Translations under genes and position numbers: made by a program
The notes under the pieces: generated by a model
Seen by the model: only the letters and a program-made list of their open reading frames with translations
What the model was told of the DNA's origin: nothing
Database searches by the model: none
Shown here: piece by piece, positions 4,166-54,860 of the stretch
Numbering within the stretch: the stretch's first letter is position 1
How the letters are laid out: each line of letters starts with the position of its first letter
Assembly (NCBI RefSeq): GCF_056712565.1
Contig: NZ_CM160072.1
DNA: 64,000 nt
Strand: one strand, 5' to 3'

Positions 4166-4180
4166 CGTTTTCCCTTATAT

Positions 4181-4936: not shown

Positions 4937-4946
4937 GTTCTTATTC

Positions 4947-33439: not shown

Positions 33440-36400
33440 GTGAAGTTTTTTGCCCTCTTCATTTACCGCCCGGTGGCGACGATTTTACTGTCGGTCGCCA
33501 TTACCCTGTGCGGCATACTGGGTTTCCGTATGCTGCCAGTCGCCCCGCTGCCGCAGGTCGATTTTCCGGTGATCATGGTCAGCGCCTCGCTGCCCGGTGC
33601 GTCACCAGAAACAATGGCGTCTTCCGTTGCCACGCCGCTGGAGCGCTCACTTGGGCGCATTGCCGGAGTCAGCGAAATGACCTCCAGCAGTTCGCTCGGC
33701 AGCACGCGCATTATTTTGCAGTTTGATTTTGACCGGGATATCAACGGCGCAGCGCGCGATGTGCAGGCGGCGATCAACGCCGCGCAAAGTCTGCTACCCA
33801 GCGGGATGCCCAGCCGTCCGACCTATCGCAAAGCGAACCCGTCGGATGCGCCAATTATGATCCTCACGCTGACATCCGATACTTATTCGCAGGGTGAACT
33901 GTACGATTTCGCCTCGACACAGCTGGCTCCGACGATTTCGCAAATCGACGGTGTCGGTGATGTCGATGTTGGCGGCAGCTCGCTGCCCGCCGTACGCGTC
34001 GGGCTGAATCCGCAGGCGCTGTTTAATCAGGGCGTCTCGCTGGACGACGTACGCACCGCCATCAGCAATGCCAACGTGCGTAAACCGCAGGGGGCGCTGG
34101 AAGATGGTACTCACCGCTGGCAGATCCAGACTAACGATGAACTGAAAACCGCCGCTGAATATCAGCCACTGATTATTCATTACAACAACGGCGGCGCGGT
34201 TCGTCTGGGCGATGTGGCGACGGTGACCGACTCAGTACAGGATGTGCGCAACGCCGGGATGACCAACGCCAAACCGGCTATTTTGCTGATGATCCGCAAG
34301 CTGCCGGAAGCCAACATTATCCAGACGGTAGACAGCATCCGCGCCCGTCTGCCGGAATTACAATCCACCATCCCGGCAGCAATTGATCTGCAAATTGCCC
34401 AGGATCGCTCCCCTACTATCCGCGCGTCGCTGGAAGAGGTTGAGCAGACGCTGATTATCTCGGTGGCGCTGGTGATTCTGGTGGTGTTTTTGTTCCTGCG
34501 TTCGGGTCGCGCCACCATTATTCCCGCCGTTGCGGTGCCGGTTTCGCTGATTGGTACGTTTGCGGCGATGTACCTGTGTGGTTTCAGTCTCAATAATCTT
34601 TCGTTAATGGCGCTCACCATCGCCACTGGCTTTGTGGTGGATGACGCCATCGTGGTGCTGGAAAACATTGCCCGTCATCTGGAGGCGGGGATGAAACCGC
34701 TACAGGCCGCGCTGCAAGGTACTCGCGAAGTCGGCTTTACGGTGCTGTCGATGAGTCTGTCACTGGTGGCGGTGTTCCTGCCGCTGCTGTTGATGGGCGG
34801 ATTGCCGGGTCGCCTGTTACGCGAGTTTGCCGTGACGCTTTCTGTCGCCATTGGTATTTCGCTGCTGGTTTCCCTGACGTTAACGCCGATGATGTGCGGC
34901 TGGATGCTAAAAGCCAGCAAGCCGCGCGAGCAAAAGCGACTGCGTGGCTTTGGTCGCATGTTGGTAGCCCTGCAACAAGGCTATGGCAAGTCGCTGAAAT
35001 GGGTGCTCAATCATACCCGTCTGGTGGGCGTGGTGCTGCTTGGCACCATTGCGCTGAATATCTGGCTGTATATCTCGATCCCGAAAACCTTCTTCCCGGA
35101 GCAGGACACCGGCGTACTGATGGGCGGGATACAGGCTGACCAGAGTATTTCGTTTCAGGCGATGCGCGGTAAGTTGCAGGACTTCATGAAAATTATCCGT
35201 GACGATCCGGCGGTGGATAATGTCACCGGCTTTACCGGCGGTTCACGGGTGAACAGTGGAATGATGTTTATCACCCTTAAACCACGCGGCGAGCGGAGCG
35301 AAACGGCCCAACAGATTATCGATCGCTTGCGTAAAAAACTGGCGAAAGAACCGGGAGCGAATCTGTTCCTGATGGCGGTACAGGATATTCGCGTTGGCGG
35401 ACGTCAGGCTAACGCCAGTTACCAGTACACGTTGTTATCCGACGACCTGGCGGCACTGCGCGAATGGGAGCCGAAAATCCGCAAAAAACTGGCGACATTG
35501 CCAGAGCTGGCTGATGTTAACTCCGATCAGGAAGATAATGGCGCGGAGATGAACCTTATTTACGATCGCGACACCATGGCGCGATTGGGAATTGACGTGC
35601 AAGCCGCCAACAGCCTGTTAAATAACGCCTTCGGTCAGCGGCAAATCTCGACCATTTACCAGCCGATGAACCAGTACAAAGTGGTGATGGAAGTTGATCC
35701 GCGCTATACCCAGGACATCAGTGCACTGGAAAAAATGTTCGTTATCAATAACGAAGGAAAAGCGATCCCGCTGTCGTATTTCGCTAAATGGCAACCGGCG
35801 AACGCTCCACTGTCGGTGAATCATCAGGGATTATCGGCGGCCTCGACCATTTCGTTCAACCTGCCGACCGGGAAATCGCTCTCGGACGCCAGTGCGGCGA
35901 TCGATCGCGCAATGACCCAGCTTGGTGTGCCTTCGACGGTGCGCGGCAGTTTTGCCGGAACAGCGCAAGTGTTCCAGGAGACGATGAACTCACAGGTGAT
36001 CCTGATTATCGCCGCCATCGCCACGGTATATATCGTACTGGGTATCCTTTACGAGAGTTATGTGCATCCACTGACGATTCTCTCCACCCTACCCTCGGCG
36101 GGCGTCGGAGCGCTGTTGGCGCTGCAGCTGTTCAATGCCCCGTTCAGCCTAATTGCGCTGATAGGGATCATGTTATTAATCGGCATCGTGAAGAAAAACG
36201 CCATTATGATGGTCTATTTTGCGCTTGAAGCCCAACGGCACGGTAACCTGACGCCGCAGGAAGCTATTTTCCAGGCCTGTCTGCTGCGTTTTCGCCCGAT
36301 TATGATGACTACCCTGGCGGCGCTGTTTGGTGCGCTGCCGCTGGTATTGTCGGGCGGTGACGGCTCGGAGTTGCGGCAACCATTGGGGATCACCATTGTC

Positions 36401-36517
36401 GGCGGTCTGGTCATGAGCCAGCTTCTGACGCTGTATACCACGCCGGTGGTGTATCTCTTTTTCGACCGTCTGCGGCTGCGTTTTTCGCGTAAACCTAAAC
36501 AAGCGGTAACCGAGTAA
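33440..36517 (+). CDS. mdtC: RND multidrug efflux transporter MdtC
   Basis: 1025-aa [32 protein letters not shown]. Confidence 0.95.
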
Positions 36518-37933
36518 ATGACAGATCTTCCCGACAGCACCCGCTGGCAATTGTGGATTGTGGCTTTCGGCTTCTTTATGCAGTCGCTGGACACCACCAT
36601 CGTTAACACCGCGCTTCCCTCAATGGCGCAAAGCCTCGGGGAAAGTCCGTTGCATATGCACATGGTCATTGTCTCTTATGTACTGACCGTGGCGGTGATG
36701 CTGCCCGCCAGCGGCTGGCTGGCGGACAAAGTCGGCGTGCGCAATATTTTCTTTACCGCCATCGTGCTGTTTACTCTCGGTTCACTGTTTTGCGCGCTTT
36801 CCGGCACGCTGAACGAACTGTTGCTGGCACGCGCGCTACAGGGCGTTGGCGGCGCGATGATGGTGCCGGTCGGCAGGTTGACGGTGATGAAAATCGTACC
36901 ACGCGAGCAATATATGGCGGCGATGACCTTTGTCACGCTGCCCGGTCAGGTCGGGCCGCTGCTTGGCCCGGCGCTCGGAGGTCTGCTGGTGGAGTACGCA
37001 TCGTGGCACTGGATCTTTTTGATCAACATTCCGGTGGGGATTATTGGCGCGATCGCCACACTGATGTTAATGCCGAACTACACCATGCAGACGCGGCGCT
37101 TTGATCTCTCCGGCTTTCTGTTGCTGGCGGTTGGCATGGCAGTCTTAACCCTGGCGCTGGACGGCAGTAAAGGTACAGGTTTCTCGCCGCTGGCGATTGC
37201 TGGCCTGGTCGCAGTTGGCGTGGTAGCACTGGTGCTTTATCTGCTGCACGCCCAAAATAACAACCGCGCCCTGTTCAGTCTGAAACTGTTCCGCACTCGT
37301 ACCTTTTCGCTGGGCCTGGCGGGGAGCTTTGCCGGACGTATTGGCAGTGGCATGTTGCCCTTTATGACACCGGTTTTCCTGCAAATTGGTCTCGGTTTCT
37401 CGCCGTTTCATGCCGGACTGATGATGATCCCGATGGTACTCGGCAGCATGGGAATGAAGCGAATTGTGGTACAGGTAGTGAATCGCTTTGGTTATCGTCG
37501 GGTACTGGTGGCGACCACGCTGGGCCTGTCGCTGGTCACCCTGTTGTTTATGACTACCGCTCTGCTGGGCTGGTACTACGTTTTGCCGTTCGTCCTGTTT
37601 TTACAAGGAATGGTCAACTCGACGCGTTTCTCCTCCATGAACACCCTGACGCTGAAAGATCTCCCGGACAACCTGGCGAGCAGCGGCAACAGTCTGCTGT
37701 CGATGATTATGCAATTGTCGATGAGTATTGGCGTCACCATCGCCGGGCTGTTGCTGGGACTTTTTGGTTCGCAGCATGTCAGCGTCGACAGCGGCACCAC
37801 ACAAACCGTCTTTATGTACACCTGGCTTAGCATGGCGTTTATCATCGCCCTTCCGGCGTTTGTCTTTGCCAGAGTGCCGAGCGATACGCATCAAAATGTG
37901 GCTATTTCACGGCGAAAAAGGAGCGCGCAATGA
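36518..37933 (+). CDS. mdtD: MFS transporter MdtD
   Basis: 471-aa ORF with 14-TM MFS pattern. Confidence 0.93.
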
Positions 37934-39333
37934 AGTTCTGGCGACCCGGTATTACCGGCAAACTGTTTCTGGCGATTTTCGCCACCTGCATTGTCTTATT
38001 GATCACGATGCACTGGGCGGTACGTATCAGTTTTGAGCGCGGCTTTATCGATTACATCAAGCATGGTAATGAACAACGGCTGCAAATGCTCGGCGATGCG
38101 CTTGGTGAGCAGTACGCCCAGCACGGGAACTGGCGCTTCCTGCGTAATAACGATCGCTTTGTATTTCAGATCCTACGTTCACTGGAGCATGATAACAACG
38201 AAGATAAGCCCGGCCCCGGTATGCCACCACACGGCTGGCGCACGCAATTTTGGGTGGTTGATCAAAATAATAAAGTGCTGGTTGGCCCGCGAGCACCGGT
38301 TCCACCCGACGGCACACGGCGGCCCATTATGGTCAATGGTGCGGAAGTTGGCGCGGTGATCGCCTCCCCTGTTGAACGACTGACCCGTAATACTGATATC
38401 AATTTTGACAGACAACAGCGGCAAACCAGTTGGCTGATTGTGGCTTTATCTACCTTATTAGCGGCGCTGGCGACATTCCCACTGGCGCGCGGTTTGCTGG
38501 CTCCGGTAAAACGACTGGTGGATGGCACGCACAAACTGGCAGCGGGTGATTTCACTACTCGCGTAGCCCCCACCAGCGAAGATGAGTTGGGCAGACTGGC
38601 AGAGGATTTCAATCAACTCGCCAGCACACTGGAGAAAAACCAGCAGATGCGCCGCGATTTTATGGCCGATATTTCTCATGAACTGCGCACGCCTTTAGCA
38701 GTACTGCGCGGCGAACTGGAAGCCATTCAGGATGGTGTGCGTAAATTCACGCCGGAGACGCTGGCTTCTTTACAGGCAGAAGTCGGAACACTGACAAAAC
38801 TGGTTGACGATCTCCATCAATTGTCTATGTCTGATGAAGGCGCTCTCGCCTATCAAAAAGCACCGGTAGATTTGATCCCACTGCTGGAAGTGGCGGGAGG
38901 CGCATTTCGCGAACGATTCGCCAGCCGTGGCCTGAAATTGCAATTTTCCCTGCCAGACAGTATTACCGTATTTGGCGATCGCGATCGTTTAATGCAGTTG
39001 TTCAATAACTTACTGGAAAACAGCCTGCGCTACACTGACAGCGGCGGCAGCCTGAAAATCTCTGCCGAACAGCACGACAAAACGGTGCGCCTGACCTTTG
39101 CCGACAGTGCGCCGGGTGTCAGTGACGATCAGCTACAAAAATTGTTTGAACGTTTTTATCGCACCGAAGGTTCCCGCAACCGCGCCAGCGGTGGTTCCGG
39201 GCTGGGGCTGGCGATTTGCCTGAACATTGTTGAAGCACATAACGGCCGCATTATTGCCGCCCATTCGCCTTTTGGCGGGCTTAGCATTACAGTAGAGTTA
39301 CCGCTGGAACGGGATTTACAGAGAGAAGTATGA
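37930..39333 (+). CDS. baeS: Envelope-stress sensor histidine kinase BaeS
   Basis: 467-aa ORF; H-box ISHELRTPL; HAMP and ATPase motifs. Confidence 0.93.
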
Positions 39334-40052
39334 CCGAGTTACCAATCGACGAAAACACACCGCGTATTTTGATCGTGGAAGATGAACCGAAGCTGGGGCA
39401 GTTGCTCATTGATTATCTGCGTGCTGCGAGCTATGCGCCAACGTTGATTAGCCACGGCGATCAGGTACTGCCATATGTGCGCCAGACACCACCGGATCTG
39501 ATCCTGTTGGATCTGATGCTCCCTGGCACCGATGGCCTGACGCTGTGCCGGGAAATTCGTCGTTTTTCTGACATTCCGATCGTGATGGTGACGGCAAAAA
39601 TCGAAGAGATCGACCGCCTGCTGGGGTTGGAGATTGGCGCAGATGACTATATCTGCAAGCCGTACAGCCCACGGGAAGTGGTAGCGCGCGTCAAAACCAT
39701 TTTGCGCCGTTGCAAACCGCAGCGTGAGTTGCAGCAACAGGATGCTGAAAGCCCGTTGATTATCGACGAAGGTCGTTTTCAGGCTTCCTGGCGCGGTAAA
39801 ATGCTTGACCTGACGCCTGCAGAATTTCGTCTGCTGAAAACGCTCTCTCATGAACCAGGAAAAGTGTTCTCCCGCGAGCAGTTGCTGAACCATCTTTATG
39901 ACGACTACCGCGTGGTAACCGACCGTACCATCGACAGCCACATTAAAAACCTGCGCCGCAAGCTGGAATCTCTCGACGCCGAACAGTCATTTATCCGCGC
40001 CGTTTACGGCGTCGGTTACCGCTGGGAAGCCGACGCCTGCCGCATCGTTTAA
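39330..40052 (+). CDS. baeR: OmpR-family response regulator BaeR
   Basis: 240-aa ORF; receiver domain and winged-helix C-terminus. Confidence 0.95.
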
Positions 40053-40564: not shown

Positions 40565-40571
40565 TTACGAT

Positions 40572-40606
40572 GCCGGGCGTAGGTTGTTGGCGTCCGGCTT
40601 TATATC
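40572..40606 (+). terminator. Putative intrinsic terminator after yegP
   Basis: Imperfect GC hairpin gccgggcg...cgtccggc followed by tttatatc. Confidence 0.4.
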
Positions 40607-40688
40607 AAAATAACGCTTATTTATTGATAATTAAGATTAACCTCCGTCATTAAAATAATGAGTAAATAAGTTTCAGTATCAGAATTTA

Positions 40689-41303
40689 TCACGCCCCACA
40701 ATCACCAATCTGATCCACCACCGTCAGATACCAGTCACTGTCATAACTGTAAAGTTGACTTAAATAAAATACCAGTCCATCGTTACTCTCTTCTGGCGCA
40801 GCGACCACACGCACGGCCCCGTATTCCATTCGACGCGCTGCGGCAATCTGCGCATCAGAAATAGTATTTTGCGGTGAACCAAACATCTGCGTGAAGACCA
40901 AACTACGGCTGACTTTATGGTGAACATCGCTATTGCTAATAAAATACCCCTGCTTATTCCAGCCACGTTCGCAGTTAAATTTCGGGATAGCTTTCTTATT
41001 AAATTCGTCATCTCGCGGAACATGTTCCCCTGCCGAGGGCCATGGGAAATACTCGGGAACAGGTTGCCTGAAATTAATTTGCTTAAGATTTTCAACATCC
41101 ATCGAAGCACCACGGTGGAAAAGAACATACAAACCCGTTTTTTTATCAATTAACGAGTTGATTAATTGGGCATCTTCTTGCTGAAAGCCCATAATCACCT
41201 TTCTGGCTGTTTCCTCCAGCGTACACCCGGCATTGGCGGGTAAAGAAAAGAATATCAGCCCCACCAGCATCATTCCTTTTTTTAACATCAGCATTGTTTG
41301 CAT
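40689..41303 (-). CDS. Accessory island gene A: secreted/periplasmic protein of unknown function (signal peptide, AXA-type cleavage site ANA-G)
   Basis: 204-aa ORF MQTMLMLKKGMMLVGLIFFSLPANAGC; last gene of a four-gene minus-strand operon; no family recognised. Confidence 0.55.
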   Translation of the reverse strand: MQTMLMLKKGMMLVGLIFFSLPANAGCTLEETARKVIMGFQQEDAQLINSLIDKKTGLYVLFHRGASMDVENLKQINFRQPVPEYFPWPSAGEHVPRDDEFNKKAIPKFNCERGWNKQGYFISNSDVHHKVSRSLVFTQMFGSPQNTISDAQIAAARRMEYGAVRVVAAPEESNDGLVFYLSQLYSYDSDWYLTVVDQIGDCGA

Positions 41304-41354
41304 CTTCTCATCATGGGGCTCATATTACACATTTAACAATTTTCAGGATAAACC

Positions 41355-43463
41355 TTACACCATACTGTTAACCTGGCCGGGTAATTCGCTAGCTGGAATA
41401 CGAAAGGTATACCAGGCATAACGACAGCGTTTCCACAGGCTGGAGAAATGGAGATGATAAAGGCAATCTGCAATAATTTCGTTATCTGGATATAAAGACT
41501 CGGCAAAATGTGTCCAGCGCGCACTGAGTTTCATGTTAAACAGTTTTTCATCTTCTTTGTTACCATACAGGCGCGACAAAGTAATCATTGCTTCGAGCGT
41601 ACCTTTATTCGCTTCTTCTTGTACCTGTTGGAGGTGCAAATGAGCAAGTGAGAGTTCTTTCACCTCAAAGATATTAAGTAAAAAAAGCCCCCATGCTTTT
41701 TCATGTCCAGCTTCATGAGCCAGAAATAAATTGTCAAGGAGATTTTTTTCATAAATAGCCCGTGTTTCTTTAGAAATTTCTTGTTTATTTAGTGCCTGGT
41801 AGCAGATAGCAATGCTAAAATAAATATTTTGTAGATCTTGTTGATGTTCGCTATAACCATAATTTTTTACCAGTGGATAAGATACCGAGCTATGGAAATT
41901 TAGGTCATCTTGAAGTATTTTAAGTGCCCGTCGAAAATACTCCAAAGCTGTAGATGGTTCATAAGGTAATTTTGTATTGTCTTCCTTATCCAAATATTCA
42001 AGAGCAACTAAATTTAATGCGGCAGGAATATTTCTTTGCTTACCAATTGTCGCAAGCGGAATGAAATAATCAGAAAGGTCAAACCAACTCAAATCTTTTA
42101 TTGCCGACCGCCAATTATGATTGTATTTAATGTCACTAGCTTTTTCCAGCCAAGCATCGCCCTGCCCTTCATCTTTTTCAAAACCCAAAATACCCTCTCG
42201 CTGGAAAAACCCCCTATAAATAACAGGTGTAGCATAAGTTGTATTCTGTGAATTTTGGCAGATAAAATTATATATCCAGAATGAATCTGGATAATAACTT
42301 AATGCAAATTTTATCGCGTACGCAGTGTAATAATTATTGAGCTTCATGTCTTCCATCACCGCTCGCTGTATACAGCACCACAACTTATCGTGATCGTTCT
42401 GCTTGTTATAGCAGGCAAGTAACCACTCTAGGGCATTATGGCGACATTCCTGAAATTGTGCGTACTGAGCAATATTCTCTGCTAAGTCGATTGCATATTG
42501 TTGCTCCTCGGGCGCAATGTCCTCAATGCTGACATCTCGGTAATCATCCCACCAAAGTAAGAGATCCATATAGTCATGTTCTTCGGTAGATAAGTGCTTA
42601 CAGGTTACTGAATCCAGCAATTCGGAAATTTCTTTATGCGACCCTCCCCAGCGTGGCATTCGAAATGGTATATATTCAACAAAAGGATAAAAAGTGTGAG
42701 GAAAAATAGTCAGGCAAACAGAAAGCCAATATTTTTGCCCACCATCATCATCATACTCAGGAAGTATATTGGGGCGAGGCAAAACGGGGCATATTGCATG
42801 CTCAAACGAAAGTCCGGAATACGCCATCAACGCTTCCACTTCTTGCGGGGAGCGGCGGTGATAATTTTTCAGTGCGATCATTAATGGTATTCCTGCGACA
42901 CTATCACCGTTAAGGTGTGCCGCCAGCCAGGCTGGCTGACCAAATACTTTTGAGTTGGTGCTGGTAAGTAATGCAGCCATCCATTGTCGTGGGTCACAAT
43001 CAATTGCTTTAAGTGTAGCGATGACCATTTGTTCATTACATGCACCAGCACAAAGCCACATTGCATGTGTGGTATCATTTGCCCAGCCATAACTGCGATA
43101 TAACCATGCACGGTGATTCCAGTATTGTGCTTCGGCAAGCCAGGCATGTGTAGAATGAGGTCTTGCTTGCTGCCAGGTTTTAATGAGTCTTAAACCTTCT
43201 GTTCCGGCATCAACTAGCGTGTTCATATCATAAAAATAGTTGCACATTTGGGTCCAGGATAAAAAATAGCGCTTTTCAGCCTGACGAGAAGTGAAACTCT
43301 CCTGTAATACCTGGTTATAAATTTCATCTAGTTCCTGATAACGTTTTTCTTGTAACATATAAGGAATATTTGCGATTTGCCATTTTCTCTCAAGAGTATT
43401 AAGTGGCATTTTTTGGTCACACATCTTTTGCATTGCACTGAGTAAACGAGCATCCTGTTCCAT
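41355..43463 (-). CDS. Accessory island gene B: large (~700 aa) Trp/Tyr-rich cytoplasmic protein of unknown function, possibly helical-repeat
   Basis: ORF 41355..43502; start set at MEQDARLLSAMQKM, which has an AAGGA Shine-Dalgarno and leaves a 10-nt gap after gene C; no family confidently recognised. Confidence 0.55.
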   Translation of the reverse strand: MEQDARLLSAMQKMCDQKMPLNTLERKWQIANIPYMLQEKRYQELDEIYNQVLQESFTSRQAEKRYFLSWTQMCNYFYDMNTLVDAGTEGLRLIKTWQQARPHSTHAWLAEAQYWNHRAWLYRSYGWANDTTHAMWLCAGACNEQMVIATLKAIDCDPRQWMAALLTSTNSKVFGQPAWLAAHLNGDSVAGIPLMIALKNYHRRSPQEVEALMAYSGLSFEHAICPVLPRPNILPEYDDDGGQKYWLSVCLTIFPHTFYPFVEYIPFRMPRWGGSHKEISELLDSVTCKHLSTEEHDYMDLLLWWDDYRDVSIEDIAPEEQQYAIDLAENIAQYAQFQECRHNALEWLLACYNKQNDHDKLWCCIQRAVMEDMKLNNYYTAYAIKFALSYYPDSFWIYNFICQNSQNTTYATPVIYRGFFQREGILGFEKDEGQGDAWLEKASDIKYNHNWRSAIKDLSWFDLSDYFIPLATIGKQRNIPAALNLVALEYLDKEDNTKLPYEPSTALEYFRRALKILQDDLNFHSSVSYPLVKNYGYSEHQQDLQNIYFSIAICYQALNKQEISKETRAIYEKNLLDNLFLAHEAGHEKAWGLFLLNIFEVKELSLAHLHLQQVQEEANKGTLEAMITLSRLYGNKEDEKLFNMKLSARWTHFAESLYPDNEIIADCLYHLHFSSLWKRCRYAWYTFRIPASELPGQVNSMV

Positions 43464-43473
43464 AGATATCCTT

Positions 43474-44190
43474 TTAATTAGGTTCAAAAATTTTAAATTC
43501 ATTCCACGGCAATTTTTTCCAGTTACTGGATGGATCTTTCAACCATGCAGTGACTTCCTTTAAATCACGGTTCGCAGTGGCGACGGGGGTATCGTATATC
43601 ATTAACCATTTTTGTCGGGCGCGAACATAAGCACTGGCATAATCTTCCCATGAAGCGAAACAATCTTGTGCTCTTTGAGCATTCAGTAATAACACTATCC
43701 AGGCCTGGTTTTCATCGCACCAGCCTAAACCGGCGATGCAACGAGTTAAAAAAGCAGTGCGCATACAGTCAAACGCCAGCCCATCCAGAACCTGGCCTTG
43801 TGCTGCCAGTTGTTCGTAAAAATCATGTGGAGAATTACCAAGCCCTGTAGCCCAGCGCTGTAATATAACGCCAATTTGTTGACGGAAATCTTCGTTGCTT
43901 TGGTAAGTTTCTGTTCCTAGCTCTTGTTTAACCTGTAGTGCAAGTTGTTGACGCTTATCATCAGTCAACTTTAAATCTAACGTGAAGCCATTTACTGACA
44001 GTCCATTACGACGAGCAACTATATCACCAATTGCTAATGCCCACTTACGTCTCTTTGTTGCTCGTCTTTTGTCCTTGATTAGATCCTTTTCTTTTTCTTT
44101 AGCAATAAAAGCATCGATTTGTGGTTTGTTTTTTTTGTATCTATAGATAAAAATAAATATTGCGACCAGGAGAACAATGATAAGACTCAT
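43474..44190 (-). CDS. Accessory island gene C: single-pass membrane-anchored protein of unknown function (possibly DUF1266-like, unverified)
   Basis: 238-aa ORF; N-terminal TM helix MSLIIVLLVAIFIFIY then soluble domain; start ATG shares one base with gene D stop (TAATG). Confidence 0.55.
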   Translation of the reverse strand: MSLIIVLLVAIFIFIYRYKKNKPQIDAFIAKEKEKDLIKDKRRATKRRKWALAIGDIVARRNGLSVNGFTLDLKLTDDKRQQLALQVKQELGTETYQSNEDFRQQIGVILQRWATGLGNSPHDFYEQLAAQGQVLDGLAFDCMRTAFLTRCIAGLGWCDENQAWIVLLLNAQRAQDCFASWEDYASAYVRARQKWLMIYDTPVATANRDLKEVTAWLKDPSSNWKKLPWNEFKIFEPN

Positions 44191-45404
44191 TATTTTTCAA
44201 CCTCTGACAGGGGTAAGTAATGAGATGTCTGTAATGTCAAACTCTCTATCTCAAAGGAAATGTTGCTGATATTTTGACCTGCAAATTGCGGATGCCACTC
44301 AGCGCCAGGGAATAACATTTCCGCAGAAGTAGCAACTATAGGGTCAATAGCATTAAGATAATGTAACTTATCAGGTGCGCTGTGTAACAGTAACCACTGC
44401 AACTCCACTGAAGGATTTGTAAAATGTTCTAATAAATGAAAGTTATTATGTAGTACGCTTAGTAAAAAACTGGTTTCGTATACTTCCGTTACATATTTCC
44501 ACCCCTGATATTCAGGTGTATTTTCATAAACAATACCCATACCTTCACAATCACTATGTCGAACTGCTTGTGGTGATAATAGTTGCAAAAGAGACAAAAC
44601 ATCGTCCGCATATTTTTTAACTGGATGACGATTTTGCTTACCTTTTATTTGATCAATTTCAAGTGAATCACCAACAACATTGAGAGCAATAGTAACATGA
44701 GGAATATTATTATTATCACGCAAACTGAATAACCGTAATTTATGTTGCTCAATTTGATTTGCATAATACTCACCATAACCACCGGTAAGATTTTTTCGAT
44801 CATCAAACTGGCCTACGCAATGTTGCATATGCCATGATTCATAAGCCATTTCACGACGAAGGTTCGAATGACTGGCATCAAACTCAACAATTTTTCCGTC
44901 TGGCACATCAAGTATTGACTTTACAGTATTTTGTTCACTCGGCTGCCACCCTTTCTCGCGTCGTTGAAGCATCTTTTCATGCTCTTCTTCACGCATTCTG
45001 AACGCAACGTAGCAGGTTATGCGCTGTAGTTTTGATTCCAGACGGGTACCACATTTCCTGGAAAGAAATTCCACCAACTCCCGTTCTTTGGTTAATATTT
45101 GTTGATGATCGGTTTCGATATAATAAAGTGTCGCAGTTGATACTGAGGCAGTATTAAACTTCGATACCAGCCATTCCGGGATTACATCATCATTTTTATT
45201 AAACAGTGAATATTCTGCAAGCGAGTTAATTTGTTGCACCATTGGAAAGTCACTAATTAGCCATCGATAAAAATGGTTGAGTAACCATTTTTGGATGGTC
45301 TCATTATCCTGGCGAAACAGACTTCTTTGCAAAATTGCTGTTTTTACTTCCGGGGCATTAATTACATCCCTTGCATTATAATTCTGGTGAATATTTCCAG
45401 TCAT
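44190..45404 (-). CDS. Accessory island gene D: 404-aa cytoplasmic protein of unknown function (possible PcfJ-like domain around WHMQHCVGQ; unverified)
   Basis: First gene of the operon; AT-rich codon usage; motif ESWHMQHCVGQFDDRKNLTGGYGEYYANQ. Confidence 0.55.
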   Translation of the reverse strand: MTGNIHQNYNARDVINAPEVKTAILQRSLFRQDNETIQKWLLNHFYRWLISDFPMVQQINSLAEYSLFNKNDDVIPEWLVSKFNTASVSTATLYYIETDHQQILTKERELVEFLSRKCGTRLESKLQRITCYVAFRMREEEHEKMLQRREKGWQPSEQNTVKSILDVPDGKIVEFDASHSNLRREMAYESWHMQHCVGQFDDRKNLTGGYGEYYANQIEQHKLRLFSLRDNNNIPHVTIALNVVGDSLEIDQIKGKQNRHPVKKYADDVLSLLQLLSPQAVRHSDCEGMGIVYENTPEYQGWKYVTEVYETSFLLSVLHNNFHLLEHFTNPSVELQWLLLHSAPDKLHYLNAIDPIVATSAEMLFPGAEWHPQFAGQNISNISFEIESLTLQTSHYLPLSEVEK

Positions 45405-45891
45405 AACATCCGCCCGTGTTTATTATATCACTCAAAGCAATAATTGTTGACTATAGATTTTTTATCTAAATCAGCATGGTTGCAGGTACATACTCAAGTA
45501 AGCCACTCAAGAAAATAACGTAAACTCAATAGTGGCAGCGTCACAAACTTTGGAAATTATGTCTTATATTTGCAGTTTATTTTAGTGAATAATTGAGATA
45601 AATGACATTATTTTACATCCTCAATAATTCAGGCTGTAAGAGGACGGCAAATACATTCATAATTATCAGGGGATGAACATTCAGGAAAGTAGTCAGTATC
45701 GTCAACTTTTTCTTTTATCACTACATGAAGATTTCGTGTAGATACTCCCATCTCTGCCACTTCTCCCCTCACATTTACACTGGAGCTAAACCCGCCGATT
45801 GCGCTACAATGCCCGCCCTTAAAGTGGGGGCACTCCCCTAACCGCTTCATCAGGTGAAGCGGCTCTGACCTGTCATCAGAACGAGAGAATT

Positions 45892-47253: not shown

Positions 47254-47397
47254 TTAATTTCGATTATTTTTCCCGGATGGAAAATTCTTAGAAACCGATC
47301 ACATACAGCTGCATTTATTAAGGTTATCATCCGTTTCGCTGAAAAACATAACCCATAAAATGCTAGCTGTACCAGGAACCACCTCCTTAGCCTGTGT

Positions 47398-47424
47398 AAT
47401 CTCCCTTACGCAGGCTTATTTTTT
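47398..47424. mobile_element. Probable P2-type att core at the prophage/host junction
   Basis: Reverse complement aaaaaataagcctgcgtaagggagatt matches the P2 att core as I recall it at 25 of 27 positions; lies between yegQ and ogr. Confidence 0.4.
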
Positions 47425-47487
47425 ACGCGTAACACAATGAAATAAAAGGATTTATTTCTGGTCACGTCCACACATTGACCACATCGA

Positions 47488-47520
47488 CAAAAAAGCCCCT
47501 CGACTGAGGGGCTTCCTGTT
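47488..47520 (-). terminator. Intrinsic terminator downstream of ogr
   Basis: Hairpin gcccctc-gact-gaggggc with a T-run on the minus strand (aaaaaa on plus at 47488..47494). Confidence 0.5.
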
Positions 47521-47525
47521 TGTAA

Positions 47526-47744
47526 TTACATCCACATAATTTGCTGCCCTGACGGCAACGGGTGCGGTCTTACGGCGTGGACTTCTCCCGGCTTCACGAT
47601 GTATCGCTGTACCGACTCATAAGTGATGAATGTGGCGCTGCAATTCACGTTCTGACACTGGTGATAACGCTCTTTTGTCGTGTCAGTGATATAGCGGCTT
47701 GTACGCGCATGTGCGGCATGCTGGCATAAAGGACAATGAAACAT
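47526..47744 (-). CDS. ogr: P2 Ogr-like zinc-finger late transcription activator
   Basis: ORF 47526..47807; start set at MFHCPLCQHAAHARTSRYITDTTKERYHQCQNVNCSATF (~72 aa, Cys4 motif). Confidence 0.85.
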   Translation of the reverse strand: MFHCPLCQHAAHARTSRYITDTTKERYHQCQNVNCSATFITYESVQRYIVKPGEVHAVRPHPLPSGQQIMWM

Positions 47745-47825
47745 CGCGAGCACCTCTTCCGGTTTTGTTGATGGTGCTATTTTAGTTAATTTATCCTTAT
47801 AAAACAAATAGATAAAATAAAAACA

Positions 47826-48989
47826 TCACTCATCATCTTCTGTTTCGTACTCCACATCAGAAAGCCTGACCTCAAGCTCCAAGGACGTCGTGAAGCCGCT
47901 ATTATTCAGAAAATGTGTCACCTTAGTGATTGTCCAGTCCTGCTCGTCTATGACGCGCTTAAAGCCTGACACTTTAACCGGTGTTTCCGTGTAAATATCT
48001 GCCCGACCGGTAGCCAGGCTGATGGAGAACTCCGCAACGCCCCGTTGCAGCTTATCCCACTTCGCCTGAGCGGCGCGCATGGCCTGCGCTTTCGTGGCAT
48101 ATACCGCGGTCAGGGCAAAAACATTGTCAGCCTCACCTGCCATGTATTCACCTTCGCGCGCTTCCGGTACTTTTGGCGCTTTCTTCTGCGTGACTGGTTT
48201 CGCTTTCGGGTGCTCCAGTGCGCGCAGGTGTTTCTCTTTCTTTTTGCGTTTCAGTTTTACCTTCTGCTTTTGTGGCTTCGGGTCTTTGGTGTGTAACCAC
48301 TTTGCCGTTACGCCGGTATAGGCTCCACGGTCAGCAATCGCAAAATGATGGCGGTCGCCGTCGCTGCGGGTGATGGTAATCTGCGGGATTTTTTTACCGC
48401 TGGCCGTCACCCCCTGCCCCGCCTTGAGAAACAACAGTTTTCCCATTTTTACCGACACCTCACCGCCGTTGCGTTCAGCAAGGCGGGTCAGGAATTTTGC
48501 ATCAGACTCCTGCGACTGGTCGATGTGCGGGATTTTAATTCCGGCCAGTGACGGAGCGACACTGGCTTCCAGCCTGTTACGGGAGGCTATCGCTTCAACA
48601 ATCGCACCGAGCGTGGTGTCATGCCAGGAGCCTTCACGGCGGGAATTGAGCGTCCCGCGAAAATCTGCACTCCGGGCGCGGATGGTGACCACATCCGGTG
48701 CGCCCCGGTGTTCAACCTCATCAACGGTAAATTTCCCTTTGCATACCAGGGCAAAACCTTTCCAGCCGATATACACCGTCAGGACAGCGCCACGAACCGG
48801 CAGCCCGACCTGCCCGTCGGCATCGTTCAGTTCAATATCAAGCTGGTCAGCCTCAAAGCCCCGGTTATCCGTCAGGGTCATGCTCATCAGACGGTCGCTG
48901 ATATTGCCGGTAATATCCCTGTTGTCGAGCATCAGCATGTAATCCGGCGTCAGCGTACTGCCTGCATCAAATGTCAGTGCATCCAGCAT
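47826..48989 (-). CDS. D: P2 gpD-like late control / tail protein
   Basis: 387-aa ORF MLDALTFDAGSTLTPDYMLMLDNRDITGNISDRL. Confidence 0.9.
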   Translation of the reverse strand: MLDALTFDAGSTLTPDYMLMLDNRDITGNISDRLMSMTLTDNRGFEADQLDIELNDADGQVGLPVRGAVLTVYIGWKGFALVCKGKFTVDEVEHRGAPDVVTIRARSADFRGTLNSRREGSWHDTTLGAIVEAIASRNRLEASVAPSLAGIKIPHIDQSQESDAKFLTRLAERNGGEVSVKMGKLLFLKAGQGVTASGKKIPQITITRSDGDRHHFAIADRGAYTGVTAKWLHTKDPKPQKQKVKLKRKKKEKHLRALEHPKAKPVTQKKAPKVPEAREGEYMAGEADNVFALTAVYATKAQAMRAAQAKWDKLQRGVAEFSISLATGRADIYTETPVKVSGFKRVIDEQDWTITKVTHFLNNSGFTTSLELEVRLSDVEYETEDDE

Positions 48990-49468
48990 TATCCCGCCCC
49001 CGTCATATCCGTGAATTTAGTCGCCATACTGCCAGCCTTACCGATGAGCGATTCTGCCTGTTTACCGATATCGCCATAAAGCGCGGCCAGTGATTCATCA
49101 ACGCGGGTGAGCGACAGCGTAAAATCAATTTTCCGGGGTGTGCCGTCTGCAAAGAAAATACTCCCTGTTTCACTCACCCTGCTGATGACATACATGCCGT
49201 AAATCATGCCGGTGCCATCCAGCAACGGCCACGCCCGGCCTTCCTCAGCCATCAGCCTGAGCGTGGTCATCGTCAGCTTGCCGCCGGTCAGTTCGGGATA
49301 AAGCACACCGGCAAGCGTGATATTTTCCTCGCCAACACCGAGAAACTGAAAGGCATCCCGTTTGCCGATACGGGAATTTGACGCCCAGCGATAATCTGAT
49401 TCACGCTGCATGGTCTGGTGTGGCAGCGTCTGGCGCATAAAAACAAACATACCTAACGCGAGCATCAT
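48989..49468 (-). CDS. U: P2 gpU-like tail protein
   Basis: 159-aa ORF MMLALGMFVFMRQTLPHQTMQRESDYRWASNSRIGKRDAFQF. Confidence 0.9.
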   Translation of the reverse strand: MMLALGMFVFMRQTLPHQTMQRESDYRWASNSRIGKRDAFQFLGVGEENITLAGVLYPELTGGKLTMTTLRLMAEEGRAWPLLDGTGMIYGMYVISRVSETGSIFFADGTPRKIDFTLSLTRVDESLAALYGDIGKQAESLIGKAGSMATKFTDMTGAG

Positions 49469-49482
49469 TTTTCGTCACCTCC

Positions 49483-51930
49483 TTAACCGTCATGCATCAT
49501 GCTGGCACGGGCGCGCGCACGTTTATCCCGCTCGTATTTTTCGAGCGCATCCTGTAACTGGCGGTCAAGCTGTGTCCCCGGCGCAGTACCACCCGTCAGG
49601 CTGATGTGATATTCGTTTTTACTCTGGTCCACATAAGAGCGGCCAGCCGGTGCCGTGACCGGCTGATAAGCCTGATAGCCTGCATAAGAGCTGGTCGCCG
49701 GAATATAACCACCGGTGCCATACGTGGCGGCATGAGTTCTGGCGGCGGTCTGGTCAAGTGTGTCTGACTCTTTGTTGATAACACCGAGTTTTTCCAGTAC
49801 CCAGTCAATACCGCTGCGCAGTTTGTTGAACGCATTAAGCGGCAGCATCAGCGCGTCAGCCAGTGCCTGCCCGAACATGACGCCCGTGTCACGGCAACGG
49901 TTCAGGGTGTCCCGGGTGGCTTTAACCGGAGCAATCAGGTTTGTAAACCACTGCCACGCGGCCTGTAACTTTTCGCCCAGCCAGTCAAACACCGGCTTAA
50001 GTGGCGTGAACAGCTCCCCCACCGGCGCAAATGCCGCTTTCAGCCCTTCAACCACACCGCCAAAGAATGCGCTGACAGGCTCCCAGTATTTACGGATAAG
50101 CAACGCCCCGGCGACAATGGCAGCCACCACGGCCACAACCGGCCAGCTAATCGCCCCGATGGCCGTCATAACAGCACTGCCAACCGTCGTGAAGATTGCC
50201 CCCATTGCGCCTGCTGCCGCGATAATAGCATTGATGCCGGTGATAACCGGCCAGGCTACGAGGCCAATGGCACCAATGATGCCAGTCAGCGCCAGTGCAC
50301 CACCGGCAATTAGGCCAATGGTTAACGCCAGTGATTTGTTTTTCTGGATCCAGCCGTCGAGTTTTAACACATACTTTGTGGCCGTCTGCGTGAGCTTACG
50401 CAGTGCGCCTTCCTGCTGGTCAAACAGGTCAGTCCCCACCGCCTCATAAGCGGACTGAAACTCCTTAAAGTCACCGCCGAGGTTGTCCTGCATGATATTT
50501 ACCAGTTCTGCGGTCTTTCCGTCTGAGGCTTTAAACGCAGCGGTCAGTTTGTCCAGCTTTCCGGTTGAGGCGGCAGTCATCAGCACGGCGGCGGCTGAAC
50601 TGGCCTCCTCCCCGAAAATGGTTTTCATGTATTCAGCCTGCTGGGCAGTACCGAGCCGGTTTTTCTCAAAACTGGCCTGCATTTCTTTCAGAATGGTAAA
50701 TACTGGTCGGGTGTTTCCCTTACTGTCTGAGGTTTTCACACCAAGCTCTTTGAGTGCATCCCATGCTTTTCCCGTCGGTGCCTGCAGGCGGCTTAACACG
50801 GCACGGCTTCCCGTTCCCGCCATTGAACCGGTAATTTTTGCATCATGCAGCGCCCCGACCATTGCGGCTGTTTCTTCAATGCTGACACCGGCATTTTTTG
50901 CCACAGGTGCGGCATAGGTCAGCGCATCGCTCATACCGTCAAAATCGGCGGCGGTTTTGTTCATCGTCATGGAGAGAACATCCCCGATATGAGCGACCTT
51001 ATCGTTTGAAAGCTGAAAGGCGGATTTCATCCCCATCAGCAGGGCGGCGTTTTCTTCCATCGTGCGGCGGTTCGCCAGCGCCATATTCAGCGTGACCGGC
51101 GTTGCCGCCTGAATGGCATCAACATCCCCACCGGCTTTCGCAATGATAATCTGCGCACCGGCAGCATCATCCGCCGAGGCGGCTGTGTTGTCGCCGAGCT
51201 GGCGCGCCTGTTTGCGTAGCGCGGCCATTTCGGCAGAATCTTTTGCCACACCGAGCACGGCCTGTAATTCTGAGTTTTTCTGCGCAAACTCATAACCGGG
51301 CATCAGCAGCTTAACACCGGCCATCGTTCCCGCCGCCGCAATCCCCACACCGGCAGCGCCCACTGAGGCCATATTTCCGGCCAGTTCCTTTCCGGCCTGA
51401 TAACGCTGTTTGACTGCGTTAAGTTTTGCCTGTTGCGCACTGACACGCGCCAGCGCGTCACGCTGCCGGTTAAGCTGGGCGGTGGTTTCACTGATACGGT
51501 TTTTCAGTCCCTGCTCATCATGTGCAAGATTGCGGGTATTAATTCCCACAGCGGCCAGTTCCCGCTGCTGGCGTTTAACGGAATCTGTCAGGCGGTTATA
51601 TTTCGCCTGTAAGTCCTCCGCCGCACGCTTTGCGGATTCCAGCACTTTCGCCTGAGCACGGGTCGGGCGTTCGGTGTTTTTAAACTGTGTGGCAAGGGCT
51701 TCGGCCTGCTGCCGTGCCTTTTCAAGTGCATGACCAGTCACGGCGAGCTGTGCACTGGTCTTGCGGAATCCCTCAATACGGGATGCGTGACCGTTCAGCT
51801 CGCGCAGTGATTTTTGTGTTTCCCGGATATCCCCCGACAGCAACTTACTCGCTGTGCGGATGGATTTAAACGGGCGGGACGCCTGGTCAACAGCCCTGAG
51901 CAATACCTGTAATTTTACATTGTTACTCAT
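49483..51930 (-). CDS. T: P2 gpT-like tail tape measure protein
   Basis: 815-aa ORF, coiled-coil N-terminal half, Gly/Ala-rich hydrophobic segment. Confidence 0.9.
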   Translation of the reverse strand: MSNNVKLQVLLRAVDQASRPFKSIRTASKLLSGDIRETQKSLRELNGHASRIEGFRKTSAQLAVTGHALEKARQQAEALATQFKNTERPTRAQAKVLESAKRAAEDLQAKYNRLTDSVKRQQRELAAVGINTRNLAHDEQGLKNRISETTAQLNRQRDALARVSAQQAKLNAVKQRYQAGKELAGNMASVGAAGVGIAAAGTMAGVKLLMPGYEFAQKNSELQAVLGVAKDSAEMAALRKQARQLGDNTAASADDAAGAQIIIAKAGGDVDAIQAATPVTLNMALANRRTMEENAALLMGMKSAFQLSNDKVAHIGDVLSMTMNKTAADFDGMSDALTYAAPVAKNAGVSIEETAAMVGALHDAKITGSMAGTGSRAVLSRLQAPTGKAWDALKELGVKTSDSKGNTRPVFTILKEMQASFEKNRLGTAQQAEYMKTIFGEEASSAAAVLMTAASTGKLDKLTAAFKASDGKTAELVNIMQDNLGGDFKEFQSAYEAVGTDLFDQQEGALRKLTQTATKYVLKLDGWIQKNKSLALTIGLIAGGALALTGIIGAIGLVAWPVITGINAIIAAAGAMGAIFTTVGSAVMTAIGAISWPVVAVVAAIVAGALLIRKYWEPVSAFFGGVVEGLKAAFAPVGELFTPLKPVFDWLGEKLQAAWQWFTNLIAPVKATRDTLNRCRDTGVMFGQALADALMLPLNAFNKLRSGIDWVLEKLGVINKESDTLDQTAARTHAATYGTGGYIPATSSYAGYQAYQPVTAPAGRSYVDQSKNEYHISLTGGTAPGTQLDRQLQDALEKYERDKRARARASMMHDG

Positions 51931-52925: not shown

Positions 52926-54130
52926 CGGTCAGGCTCCTTATAATTGCTGTTAACCGAGGTGACCAGATTTGCCAGGTATTTATCGGTAATACGCTGGCGC
53001 AGGGTCAGGTTTTCAAGAGGAGGCACCGGTGTATAGTCGTAGTCGATATACAGTTTTCCGGCCTTGAGGGTTTCCGCATCGTTGGATTCTTCGCTGAACC
53101 AGCAGGTCGCATCCACGATATAGCCGTTTGTTTTCAGCTCACGGAATTTGGCATTGATGCCGTCAACGATGTCGCGAATCAGCGTTGCGGTGATGGGCTT
53201 GTCCACCGCCCACATGTGCGCCTCAGCCATCGTGTCAGCCAGTACCTGCGCGGTGCGGGTGTAGTTTTCAAAGAGGAACAGCGGGTCATCAGAGCAGGTA
53301 CGGTTACCCCAGAATCGGAAACCGTCGCGGCGAATCAGCGTAGTGACGCCTGACTCGTTAAGCAGGTCAGCATCGGTGCCGGACTCCTGCAAATCCCAGA
53401 ATACAGATGCGCTGATGCCGGTAACACCGTTTACCCCGACGTTGGACAGCGTTTTATGCCAGCCCTGCTCCTGGTCGATTTTAGCGCGCAGACCCAGCGC
53501 ACGGGCGGTGGCATACGCGGTAGCGGTGGTACTGGTGACCGTATCCCATGCGAGGAAATCCGGCCAGATGACCATCAGCTCACGCTGGCTGAAATTCTGG
53601 CGGTAGGCTTTCACCTCGGAAATGGTCTTACAGCCCCATGCGCTGATATATCCGAAAGCGCGCAGCTTCTGACAGACGGATGCCAGTGCAACAGCCACCT
53701 CTTTGGTATCCAGTCCCGGCACACCGAGAATACGCGGTTTAACACCGGTTACCGACTCCGCCGCCAGCAGGGCTTTTAGTCCGGTGTACTGACCGTTTTC
53801 GTCGGTGGTGCCGATGATATTGGAAACGGTCTGCGCGAGTTTCGTTTCCTCGTCATCACCGGTGCAGTCTTCCACGCGCACGACAACGGTGACCGGTTTT
53901 GACTGGTCAGCGATGGCCTGCAACGATGCCGCCAGCGTGCCTTTTTTACCGGCCTTTGCAATTGCGCTTTGCACATTGGTAATCAGCACCGGTTTATTGA
54001 GGGGGAAGGTTTCCGCATCCGCATCGCTGGCCGTGCAGACCATGCCGACAATGGCAGTGGATACGGTGGAAATGACGCGGGTGCCGTCGTTAATCTCCAG
54101 CACCTGCACGCCATGATGATAGTCACTCAT
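52898..54130 (-). CDS. FI: P2 gpFI-like tail sheath protein
   Basis: 410-aa ORF MSDYHHGVQVLEINDGTRVISTVSTAIVGMV. Confidence 0.9.
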   Translation of the reverse strand: MSDYHHGVQVLEINDGTRVISTVSTAIVGMVCTASDADAETFPLNKPVLITNVQSAIAKAGKKGTLAASLQAIADQSKPVTVVVRVEDCTGDDEETKLAQTVSNIIGTTDENGQYTGLKALLAAESVTGVKPRILGVPGLDTKEVAVALASVCQKLRAFGYISAWGCKTISEVKAYRQNFSQRELMVIWPDFLAWDTVTSTTATAYATARALGLRAKIDQEQGWHKTLSNVGVNGVTGISASVFWDLQESGTDADLLNESGVTTLIRRDGFRFWGNRTCSDDPLFLFENYTRTAQVLADTMAEAHMWAVDKPITATLIRDIVDGINAKFRELKTNGYIVDATCWFSEESNDAETLKAGKLYIDYDYTPVPPLENLTLRQRITDKYLANLVTSVNSNYKEPDRWQCRANSS

Positions 54131-54220
54131 CCGTTTAACTCCGTGGTTAATGGGTACAACTATTTTCTGTTGTGCAGAGCATAAGACGCTATTTGACCTG
54201 GCTGGTCAGTGGATGAAACA

Positions 54221-54253
54221 ACAGATAAAGAAAAGGCGGGCAATTCGCCCGCC
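54221..54253 (-). terminator. Intrinsic terminator on the minus strand, upstream of the FI promoter region
   Basis: Hairpin ggcgggc-aatt-cgcccgcc with a T-rich tract on the minus strand (ttttctttatctg). Confidence 0.55.
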
Positions 54254-54316
54254 TGTCCTGATTTGTACTCACTCATTTTCCGCCTGACAATTTACATAGC
54301 CCAAATGCTATCAAAC

Positions 54317-54334
54317 CTGACAGTCTGCTTTGAG
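54317..54334 (+). repeat. Copy 1 of ~16-bp motif CTGACAGTCTGSTYTG (ctgacagtctgctttgag)
   Basis: Shares a 13-mer with copy 3 and an 11-mer with copy 2. Confidence 0.7.
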
Positions 54335-54460
54335 CGAAAAGTGGACATTAGAGTTACAAAAGCAAGTTTAAATCATCCAAAATATTACAATGTCCTTATC
54401 TATCTGATATCGTTATGATAAAAAGCTCCTGAATATAATCGATAGTAGGTGGTTATTTCC

Positions 54461-54838: not shown

Positions 54839-54860
54839 ATATAAAATCAGCCCCCATAAC

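Follow-up and report, generated by a model that had tools for sequence, protein, structure and literature searches.

The window analyzed here, a stretch of 64,000 nucleotides from contig NZ_CM160072.1 (RefSeq assembly GCF_056712565.1), carries a low-GC island between yegP and yegQ, and one of the genes in this island, gene D, encodes a protein with a PcfJ-like core. Its product is supported as a true but divergent branch of the PcfJ family, and the gene is the first of a translationally coupled operon, in the order PcfJ-like, DUF1266, DUF4034/Sel1-repeat, which is a conserved unit across Proteobacteria. The model that we favor, with slightly better than even confidence, is that this divergent PcfJ protein would serve as the catalytic subunit of a three-protein inner-membrane complex encoded by the operon.

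Gene D is the sole open reading frame (ORF) at exactly its coordinates on the minus strand (Table 1), and the 6-kb stretch around it is 100% identical in Escherichia coli strains that include UTI89, S88, LF82, IHE3034, NU14, and ATCC 11775. On the minus strand between yegP and yegQ, RefSeq lists four genes, for a hypothetical protein, a DUF4034 protein, a DUF1266 protein, and a “PcfJ domain-containing protein” (WP_000147372.1); the last is the name borne by the gene D product in UTI89 and further B2 strains. The initial annotation of the window had proposed, from the letters alone, that a 55-residue segment of the translation (ESWHMQHCVGQFDDRKNLTGGYGEYYANQIEQHKLRLFSLRDNNNIPHVTIALNV, residues 189-243) resembles the conserved core of PcfJ-like proteins. 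This family call is correct, but it is already present in public annotation and is thus not new.

Sequence profiles and predicted structures both place the segment in the conserved core of this family. In a search against Pfam with hidden Markov models (HMMs), the gene D protein matched PF14284 (PcfJ) with 26.2 bits (E 7.5e-6), just above the curated gathering cut-off of 25 bits, and residues 141-268 covered model positions 30-145 of 147. Homologs of the protein numbered 224 in the database at E <= 1e-3, and all 50 of the aligned full-length subfamily members matched PF14284 at E <= 1, the best of them at 5.4e-8. Aligned with hhalign to the single sequence of PcfJ from the Enterococcus faecalis plasmid pCF10, the subfamily profile aligned over 69 columns (E 5e-5, probability 67%), with residues 179-263 on residues 357-427 of the plasmid protein, and the motifs E..E, HCVG, R, P..T, and QI(K/Q)GK.NR agreed one for one; a BLASTP comparison of the gene D protein itself with pCF10 PcfJ gave E 0.049. 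An AlphaFold2 model of the protein (predicted local distance difference test, 87.4; predicted template modeling score, 0.71) was compared with the BFVD collection using Foldseek, and the best matches (E 3.5e-14 to 1e-4) were proteins of phages that bear the name “PcfJ-like protein”. The five best all carried this name (E 3.5e-14 to 2.8e-8, probability 1.00), and all five are structure predictions rather than experimental structures. Scans of the four island proteins against NCBIfam, PHROGs, and PADLOC returned nothing significant.

To define what is conserved across the family at large, the core HMM was aligned to 40 distant PcfJ domains taken from the results of a search through 1.84 billion representatives, which had yielded 2110 matches at E <= 1e-3 and 50 at E <= 1e-30. 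The resulting superfamily signature consists of E189, [G/S]190, M193, H195, C196, G198, Y214, R229, P235, H236, T238, E240, Q252, K254, G255, K256, N258, P261, and Y265. Eighteen of these 19 positions are held by the gene D protein, the exception being position 240, which is A and not the E found in 31 of the 40 distant domains. Position 190 is S, where most distant domains have G. Eight residues (E189, M193, G198, R229, P235, H236, T238, and Y265) are each retained in 35-40 of the 40 domains, as are most residues of a loop further downstream (Q252 in 39, K254 in 32, G255 in 40, K256 in 39, and N258 in 39); P261 and Y214, both present in the gene D protein, occur in 33 and 25, respectively. 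The His/Cys motif pointed out in the initial annotation stands in part: H195 (36 of 40) and C196 (39 of 40) are conserved, whereas H192 varies between H, C, L, V, A, and M even among close homologs.

The gene D protein and pCF10 PcfJ share the patterns E-[GS]-x2-M-x-H-C-x-G, R, P-H-x-T, Q-x-K-G-K-x-N, and P-x3-Y, but differ in architecture and setting. The plasmid protein is 447 amino acids long (pcfJ, pCF10 35873-37216), has its core at the carboxyl terminus, and is the product of a conjugative-plasmid gene that adjoins an AcrIIA9-family gene; neither DUF1266 nor DUF4034 is annotated among its neighbors. Gene D, in contrast, is chromosomal and accompanied by two partner genes, and its product has an N-terminal helical region of its own (residues 1-150) as well as a C-terminal helical domain. 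On pCF10, pcfJ belongs to a minus-strand block (35873-39514) that comes immediately after the relaxase gene and also contains a DpnD/PcfM-family gene and the AcrIIA9-family anti-CRISPR gene, a setting that would fit a role of plasmid PcfJ in establishment or anti-defense.

Proteins that match the gene D protein over its whole length fall into only about 50 clusters (50% identity), which stem from Enterobacteriaceae, Burkholderia, Variovorax, Pseudomonas, Lysobacter, Rhizobium, and relatives. Their N-terminal helical region, which contains invariant Y9, R12, N16, W40, and H44, is specific to this branch, as is the C-terminal helical domain; the subfamily alignment as a whole contains two invariant cysteines and three invariant histidines. 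More distant PcfJ cores are present in many phage contigs, including those of jumbo phages, and in two to four copies in giant proteins of 1200-3300 amino acids, one of which contains an InPase domain as well.

The organization of the operon was examined in the window and across species. The stop codon of gene D and the start codon of the DUF1266 gene overlap by one base (TAATG), and the DUF4034 gene, preceded by an AAGGA ribosome-binding site, starts 10 nucleotides past the DUF1266 stop. A candidate promoter upstream of gene D matches at 10 of 12 positions, although the count of such sites in the region is no higher than in shuffled sequence. We surveyed the neighborhoods of 80 species-level loci by searching six-frame ORFs with purpose-built HMMs, the one for DUF1266 being built from domain regions only. 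As each ORF was taken to begin at the first start codon following a stop, and ORFs are therefore often too long in high-GC genomes, negative gene distances in this survey reflect the calling. In 79 of the 80 loci, DUF1266 either follows the PcfJ-like gene directly (71 loci) or is fused to it (8 loci); the remaining locus lies on a 3.6-kb contig that ends about 240 nucleotides past the PcfJ-like gene. A third large partner of about 700-850 amino acids was found in 78 loci, the two exceptions being truncated contigs. This partner is of two types. A DUF4034-type protein of about 700 amino acids is encoded downstream in 27 loci (enterics, Burkholderia, Variovorax, Chitinilyticum, Lysobacter, and Rhizobium), and a TPR-containing protein of about 780 amino acids upstream in 51 (Pseudomonas, Ralstonia, Trinickia, Delftia, Acidovorax, and Zoogloeaceae). 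The family profile of the former matches solved Sel1-repeat proteins (E 2.5e-27), and the latter type matches TPR proteins (E 2e-14).

Natural fusions link the same components. The database contains PcfJ+DUF1266 fusions of 600-690 amino acids, a triple fusion of PcfJ, DUF1266, and TPR of 774 amino acids, and an 830-amino-acid protein combining a PcfJ-like part with TPR. Both types of module, DUF4034 and TPR, are carried by Serratia sp. DD3 and Burkholderia paludis, and in Massilia rubra, four paralogs of the TPR-type partner surround one PcfJ-like gene. The survey shows that pairing with DUF1266, adjacent or fused, is obligate, that the third partner is a large helical-repeat protein, and that one branch of the PcfJ family is chromosomal and tied to DUF1266 and a Sel1/TPR protein. 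Because the genes are adjacent, translationally coupled, and repeatedly fused, which comparative genomics commonly reads as a sign of joint function, we infer that the three proteins act as one complex. The remaining gene of the island, encoding a 204-amino-acid protein, may be an unrelated passenger rather than a member of the conserved module: its homologs were found only in E. coli, E. fergusonii, and E. whittamii, and none at any of the 80 module loci.

The same operon is present elsewhere in the enterics. In Salmonella, Citrobacter, Klebsiella, and Buttiauxella, a three-gene operon of host-like GC content (0.53-0.57) lies between baeR and yegQ; compared with these, the E. coli copy is inverted, 56-60% identical, AT-rich, and accompanied by the Escherichia-only orphan. 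In Salmonella Typhimurium, the genes are STM2133-STM2134-STM2135, which share gene number, order, and chromosomal interval with the island operon and encode uncharacterized proteins labeled “cytoplasmic” and “inner membrane”. The E. coli copy is 59% identical to them at the protein level and has the opposite orientation relative to baeR and yegQ, and the Salmonella locus differs further in its GC content (0.53 versus 0.40) and in lacking both yegP and the extra gene. STM2135 has been described as a protein of about 700 amino acids of unknown function adjoining yegQ (PMC7400221), and an STM2133 deletion mutant is listed in a table of hypermotile mutants from a motility screen (PMC4219756). No other phenotype for STM2133-2135 was found in the literature searched.

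A related arrangement occurs in E. coli K-12, where two tandem sets, ybeQ-ybeR-djlB and ybeT-ybeU-djlC (NC_000913 675570-683393), adjoin the Hsp70 gene hscC and encode a Sel1-repeat protein, a DUF1266 protein, and a J-domain co-chaperone of HscC. Like the island operon, each set joins an effector-like third member to a Sel1/TPR protein and a DUF1266 protein, and its DUF1266 gene overlaps the next gene; the DUF1266 protein of the island is homologous to YbeU (hhalign probability 93.6%). The sets differ in gene order and in the third member, which is a J-domain protein in K-12 and PcfJ-like in the island. A relationship between the PcfJ-like protein and DjlC was considered as well, but no similarity was detected. 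By analogy, the Sel1/TPR and DUF1266 pair appears to be a reusable module that can be combined with different third subunits. No functional studies of PcfJ-like proteins, PF14284, DUF4034, DUF1266, STM2133-2135, or ybeR/ybeU/djlB/djlC were found in the literature searched.

The DUF1266 proteins are also the likely source of membrane association. The island protein starts with a hydrophobic helix (MSLIIVLLVAIFIFIY) that is followed by a Lys/Arg-rich stretch, and on the basis of the positive-inside rule, this helix is predicted to anchor the DUF1266 domain to the inner membrane on the cytoplasmic side. In 57 of 79 proteins, the domain is preceded by a hydrophobic 19-mer (Kyte-Doolittle >= 1.6), and most of the others have weaker or shorter ones. 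Fusions of the Zoogloeaceae type have a linker with two hydrophobic helices, forming a hairpin, which would place both domains on the same side of the membrane; in some natural fusions, such a hairpin is preceded by a poly-Arg/Lys run. Judged from these sequences, membrane association of the module is probably common but not obligatory.

Sequence searches of the PDB with the gene D protein and the subfamily profile detected no relative, nor did a search with the DUF1266 profile, and Foldseek found no match in the PDB at E <= 1e-3. The best matches below this level (E 0.03-0.4) were GNAT (GCN5-related N-acetyltransferase; acyl-CoA N-acyltransferase-like) enzymes, plus FemX and L/F-transferase, and GNATs also ranked next after the PcfJ-like proteins in BFVD. 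In the model, the core consists of strands at 161-175, helices at 182-193 and 209-219, strands at 223-229, 235-244, and 247-254, a helix at 263-276, and strands at 291-295 and 300-304, an order that would fit the GNAT scheme b1-a1-a2-b2-b3-b4-a3-b5; overall, the GNAT signal is weak but consistent. GNATs bind the pyrophosphate of coenzyme A (CoA) through a Q/RxxGxG/A motif between strand 4 and helix 3. By position, the Q-I-K-G-K-Q-N loop would take the place of this motif, and the E..E...H-C-x-G segment would fall in the region of helices 1 and 2, which shapes the acceptor site in GNATs. The PcfJ core thus appears to resemble the GNAT superfamily in the succession of its strands and helices and in having a conserved loop that joins strand 4 to helix 3, and its structural matches to GNATs are consistent. 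It differs in that the gene D protein matches no Pfam acetyltransferase model, in that the loop reads Q-x-K-G-K-x-N instead of Q/RxxGxG/A, and in its invariant His-Cys pair, which is not a general GNAT feature. As the fold statistics are weak and the loop agrees with the motif in part only, we give perhaps an even chance to the PcfJ core being an acyltransferase-like or related group-transferase enzyme that uses a phosphate-bearing donor.

Taken together, these features could be accommodated in the following scheme. The PcfJ core would be an enzyme with a GNAT-like alpha/beta fold and a predicted active site of E189, H195, C196, R229, H236, and T238, and its donor, of the CoA or nucleotide type, would have its phosphates bound by the Q-x-K-G-K-x-N loop. 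The N-terminal hydrophobic helix of DUF1266 would tether the enzyme to the inner membrane on the cytoplasmic side, and the Sel1/TPR protein would recruit a macromolecular target. The most likely activity of the complex would be the transfer of an acyl group, or a related one, to a protein or nucleic acid acceptor, with stress response or inter-genome conflict as candidate physiological roles. A more far-reaching version is also conceivable, although we consider it improbable in its entirety: the PcfJ domain would be a GNAT-fold transferase using the invariant His-Cys pair, and the triad an undescribed membrane-associated system built on the same Sel1+DUF1266 adaptor pair that is encoded with DjlB and DjlC in K-12. 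The pair would select clients, whose fate the third subunit, a J-domain protein or the PcfJ enzyme, would decide, and phages and plasmids would employ free-standing PcfJ domains to attack or mimic the same targets.

Several observations weigh against this scheme. The PF14284 score exceeds the cut-off by a mere 1.2 bits, and the hhalign probability to pCF10 PcfJ reaches 67% only. The E. coli DUF4034 protein alone, when searched against Sel1 structures, gave no significant match, and the homology of the DUF4034-type and TPR-type partners is not significant (hhalign probability 27%). In the loop, Q252-I-K-G255-K-Q257 keeps the Q and the first G of the GNAT motif, but not the last G/A, so that two of three motif positions are matched, and the loop is about five residues longer than the GNAT motif. 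That the invariant residues cluster in the predicted active site is an assumption made on the model. Lastly, the linkers of the Lysobacter and Rhizobium fusions were checked and contain no hydrophobic segment, so that membrane tethering is not universal; in natural fusions without such a segment, only a short GGWLRRLL-type motif was noted between the domains.

We next considered the island itself, the junctions of which were set by blastn against a 99%-identical strain with an empty site. Its GC content is 0.397, compared with 0.54 in the flanks, and 297 of 5426 complete E. coli genomes (5.5%) carry it. The yegP-yegQ spacer (window 40565-45891) exists in three states in E. coli, holding the 5.2-kb island, a ParD/ParE toxin-antitoxin pair, or nothing; it is empty in K-12, and the ParDE pair is found in many other strains. 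The ParDE variant shares 59 nucleotides on the left and 30 on the right with the island variant, and both stretches are missing from the empty one. In S. Typhi, the yegQ locus holds the immunity islet SAIDI-1 (PMC7400221). The low GC content and the presence in 5.5% of genomes are evidence of horizontal origin or loss, and horizontal acquisition or replacement is probable for the E. coli island.

The initial annotation had further suggested that gene D ties the island to mobile-element biology, and this suggestion was not supported. No integrase or transposase was found in the island, whose four genes match only PcfJ, DUF1266, DUF4034, or nothing. There are no tRNA genes between 36 and 50 kb of the window, no pair of flanking repeats at 40599 and 45800, and no Rfam families at the island edges, except for CyaR downstream of yegQ. 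UTI89 carries the island without a neighboring prophage. The full-length subfamily had no tblastn matches in 50,697 GenBank phage genomes and 8 in 72,556 plasmids, all of them on non-mobilizable replicons larger than 300 kb, and the two full-length matches in IMG/VR proved to be this island of E. coli, situated at the border of a region called as prophage. In the 80 other species, the module sits among ordinary chromosomal genes: among 89 flanking genes, no Pfam family recurs more than twice, and the 25 families listed are of housekeeping and regulatory types plus two Zeta-toxin matches, with no integrase or transposase among them. A link of the island to a conjugative element or phage is therefore not supported.

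Of the other explanations, the one that survives best, although still unlikely, is that the three genes constitute an anti-phage or anti-plasmid defense system, in which the TPR/Sel1 protein senses the invader, the PcfJ-like enzyme is the effector, and DUF1266 holds the effector at the membrane. The patchy distribution in E. coli and the deviating GC content of the island would fit this, as would its location in a hotspot that elsewhere holds a ParDE pair or an immunity islet. A layout of enzyme and repeat sensor is common in defense systems, and the abundance of the catalytic domain in phages and polyvalent proteins is as expected for domains involved in inter-genome conflict. However, PADLOC-DB v2 contains no match for the PcfJ-like, DUF1266, or 204-amino-acid proteins, and the best match obtained, of DUF4034 to PDC-S32 (E 0.0013, 16.8 bits), is at noise level. 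Only 3 of the 89 flanking genes match defense models, and no family recurs among them. Moreover, the fixed locus and host-like GC content in Salmonella, Citrobacter, Klebsiella, and Buttiauxella resemble those of resident genes rather than of a shuffled cassette.

We regard it as quite improbable that the PcfJ-like protein is a non-enzymatic structural or adaptor subunit, whose conserved residues bind a metal or a partner and whose likeness to GNATs is that of a generic alpha/beta sandwich. The fold statistics are weak, the subfamily has its invariant cysteines and histidines, and no cofactor motif is matched exactly, all of which agree with such a role. A Cys2His2 zinc site formed by C131, H142, H195, and C196 was considered, but C131 and H142 are conserved within the subfamily only, so that such a site is no feature of the superfamily, and the candidate was dropped. 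The invariant residues of the superfamily (E, H, C, R, H, T, Q, K, K, N, and Y) are instead polar, reactive, and typical of active sites, and polyvalent proteins contain two to four copies of the domain beside at least one enzymatic domain (InPase).

Less probable still is a toxin-antitoxin-like pair, in which the PcfJ-like protein would be a GNAT-type toxin neutralized by DUF1266, as in acetyltransferase toxins of the TacT/AtaT type. While the GNAT-like fold, the tight translational coupling of the two genes, and the presence of ParDE in the same spacer in other strains are compatible with this, the putative toxin gene comes first, the two proteins are repeatedly fused into one polypeptide, and the third partner of 700-850 amino acids is nearly universal. 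Furthermore, no DNA-binding domain was detected in DUF1266 in the Pfam scan, and its pairing with J-domain co-chaperones in K-12 fits an antitoxin poorly. Least probable of all is a remnant or cargo of a conjugative element or phage that acts like pCF10 PcfJ in the establishment or anti-defense of incoming DNA: the name-giving gene of the family adjoins an AcrIIA9-family gene, PcfJ cores occur in many phage contigs and giant multi-domain proteins, and the low-GC island lies about 2 kb from a P2-like prophage, but the island has no mobility or conjugation gene, tRNA, or flanking repeat in or beside it, occurs without the prophage in UTI89, and appears in IMG/VR only at the edge of a prophage call; moreover, the full-length subfamily had no match in GenBank phages or mobilizable plasmids, and its two partner genes are chromosomal in all 80 species.

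The DUF1266/Sel1-TPR-linked chromosomal branch, the natural fusions, and the apparent GNAT likeness of the PcfJ core were not met in the full-text literature searched. Taken together, these three points make of three “domains of unknown function” a defined three-part system with testable candidate catalytic residues, which covers both Salmonella STM2133-2135 and the gene set of E. coli strains such as UTI89, S88, and LF82. Beyond the existing family name, the analysis adds the definition of the operon, a catalog of invariant residues, and, as predicted from the model, a GNAT-like fold. These findings suggest what the PcfJ domains of phages and plasmids might do. They also serve as a warning that a “PcfJ-like” label alone is no evidence for a mobile element.

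Table 1. Positions of the operon, the island, and adjacent features in the window (position 1 is the first nucleotide of the window).
Feature	Position	Strand	Remarks
Gene D, PcfJ-like, first gene of the operon	44190..45404	-	ORF of 404 amino acids, ATG start; RefSeq WP_000147372.1
Segment quoted in the initial annotation	44676..44840	-	residues 189-243; E189, M193, H195, C196, G198, Y214, R229, P235, H236, T238
Pfam PF14284 (PcfJ) match	44601..44984	-	residues 141-268; alpha/beta core, GNAT-like strand/helix order in the model
Q252-I-K-G-K-Q-N258 loop	44631..44651	-	invariant in the subfamily; between strand 4 and helix 3
Promoter-like site TCAACA-17-TG-TATAAT	45422..45450	-	candidate; 18 nucleotides upstream of the gene D ATG
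DUF1266 protein, 238 amino acids	43474..44190	-	Pfam PF06889, E 9.5e-19; N-terminal hydrophobic helix, then Lys/Arg-rich stretch
DUF4034 protein, 702 amino acids	41355..43463	-	Pfam PF13226, E 1.7e-101; Sel1/TPR-like repeats mid-protein; RefSeq start
ORF of 204 amino acids (RefSeq: 201)	40689..41303	-	signal-peptide or lipobox-like N-terminus (…LPANAGC…); no Pfam family
Island, 5.2 kb, GC 0.397	40599..45800	.	insert in yegP-yegQ spacer versus near-identical empty-site strain
CyaR small RNA	47336-47421		Rfam, 100 bits; just past yegQ
Ogr-like zinc-finger ORF	47526-47807	-	P2-like prophage
gpD-like ORF	47826-48989	-	P2-like prophage
Tape-measure-like ORF, 815 amino acids	49483-51930	-	P2-like prophage

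A few further features of the window were noted. The P2-like prophage lies just past yegQ and CyaR, in the part of the window that covers 47336-51930 and beyond. A Cys/His-rich ORF of 73 amino acids (45629-45850, minus strand) spans the right junction of the island and may be spurious; the sequence that holds its first 17 or so codons, upstream of yegQ, is conserved in island-free strains as well. Further patches of low GC content are found at window 4001-6000 (0.43-0.46) and 54001-56000 (0.40-0.42).

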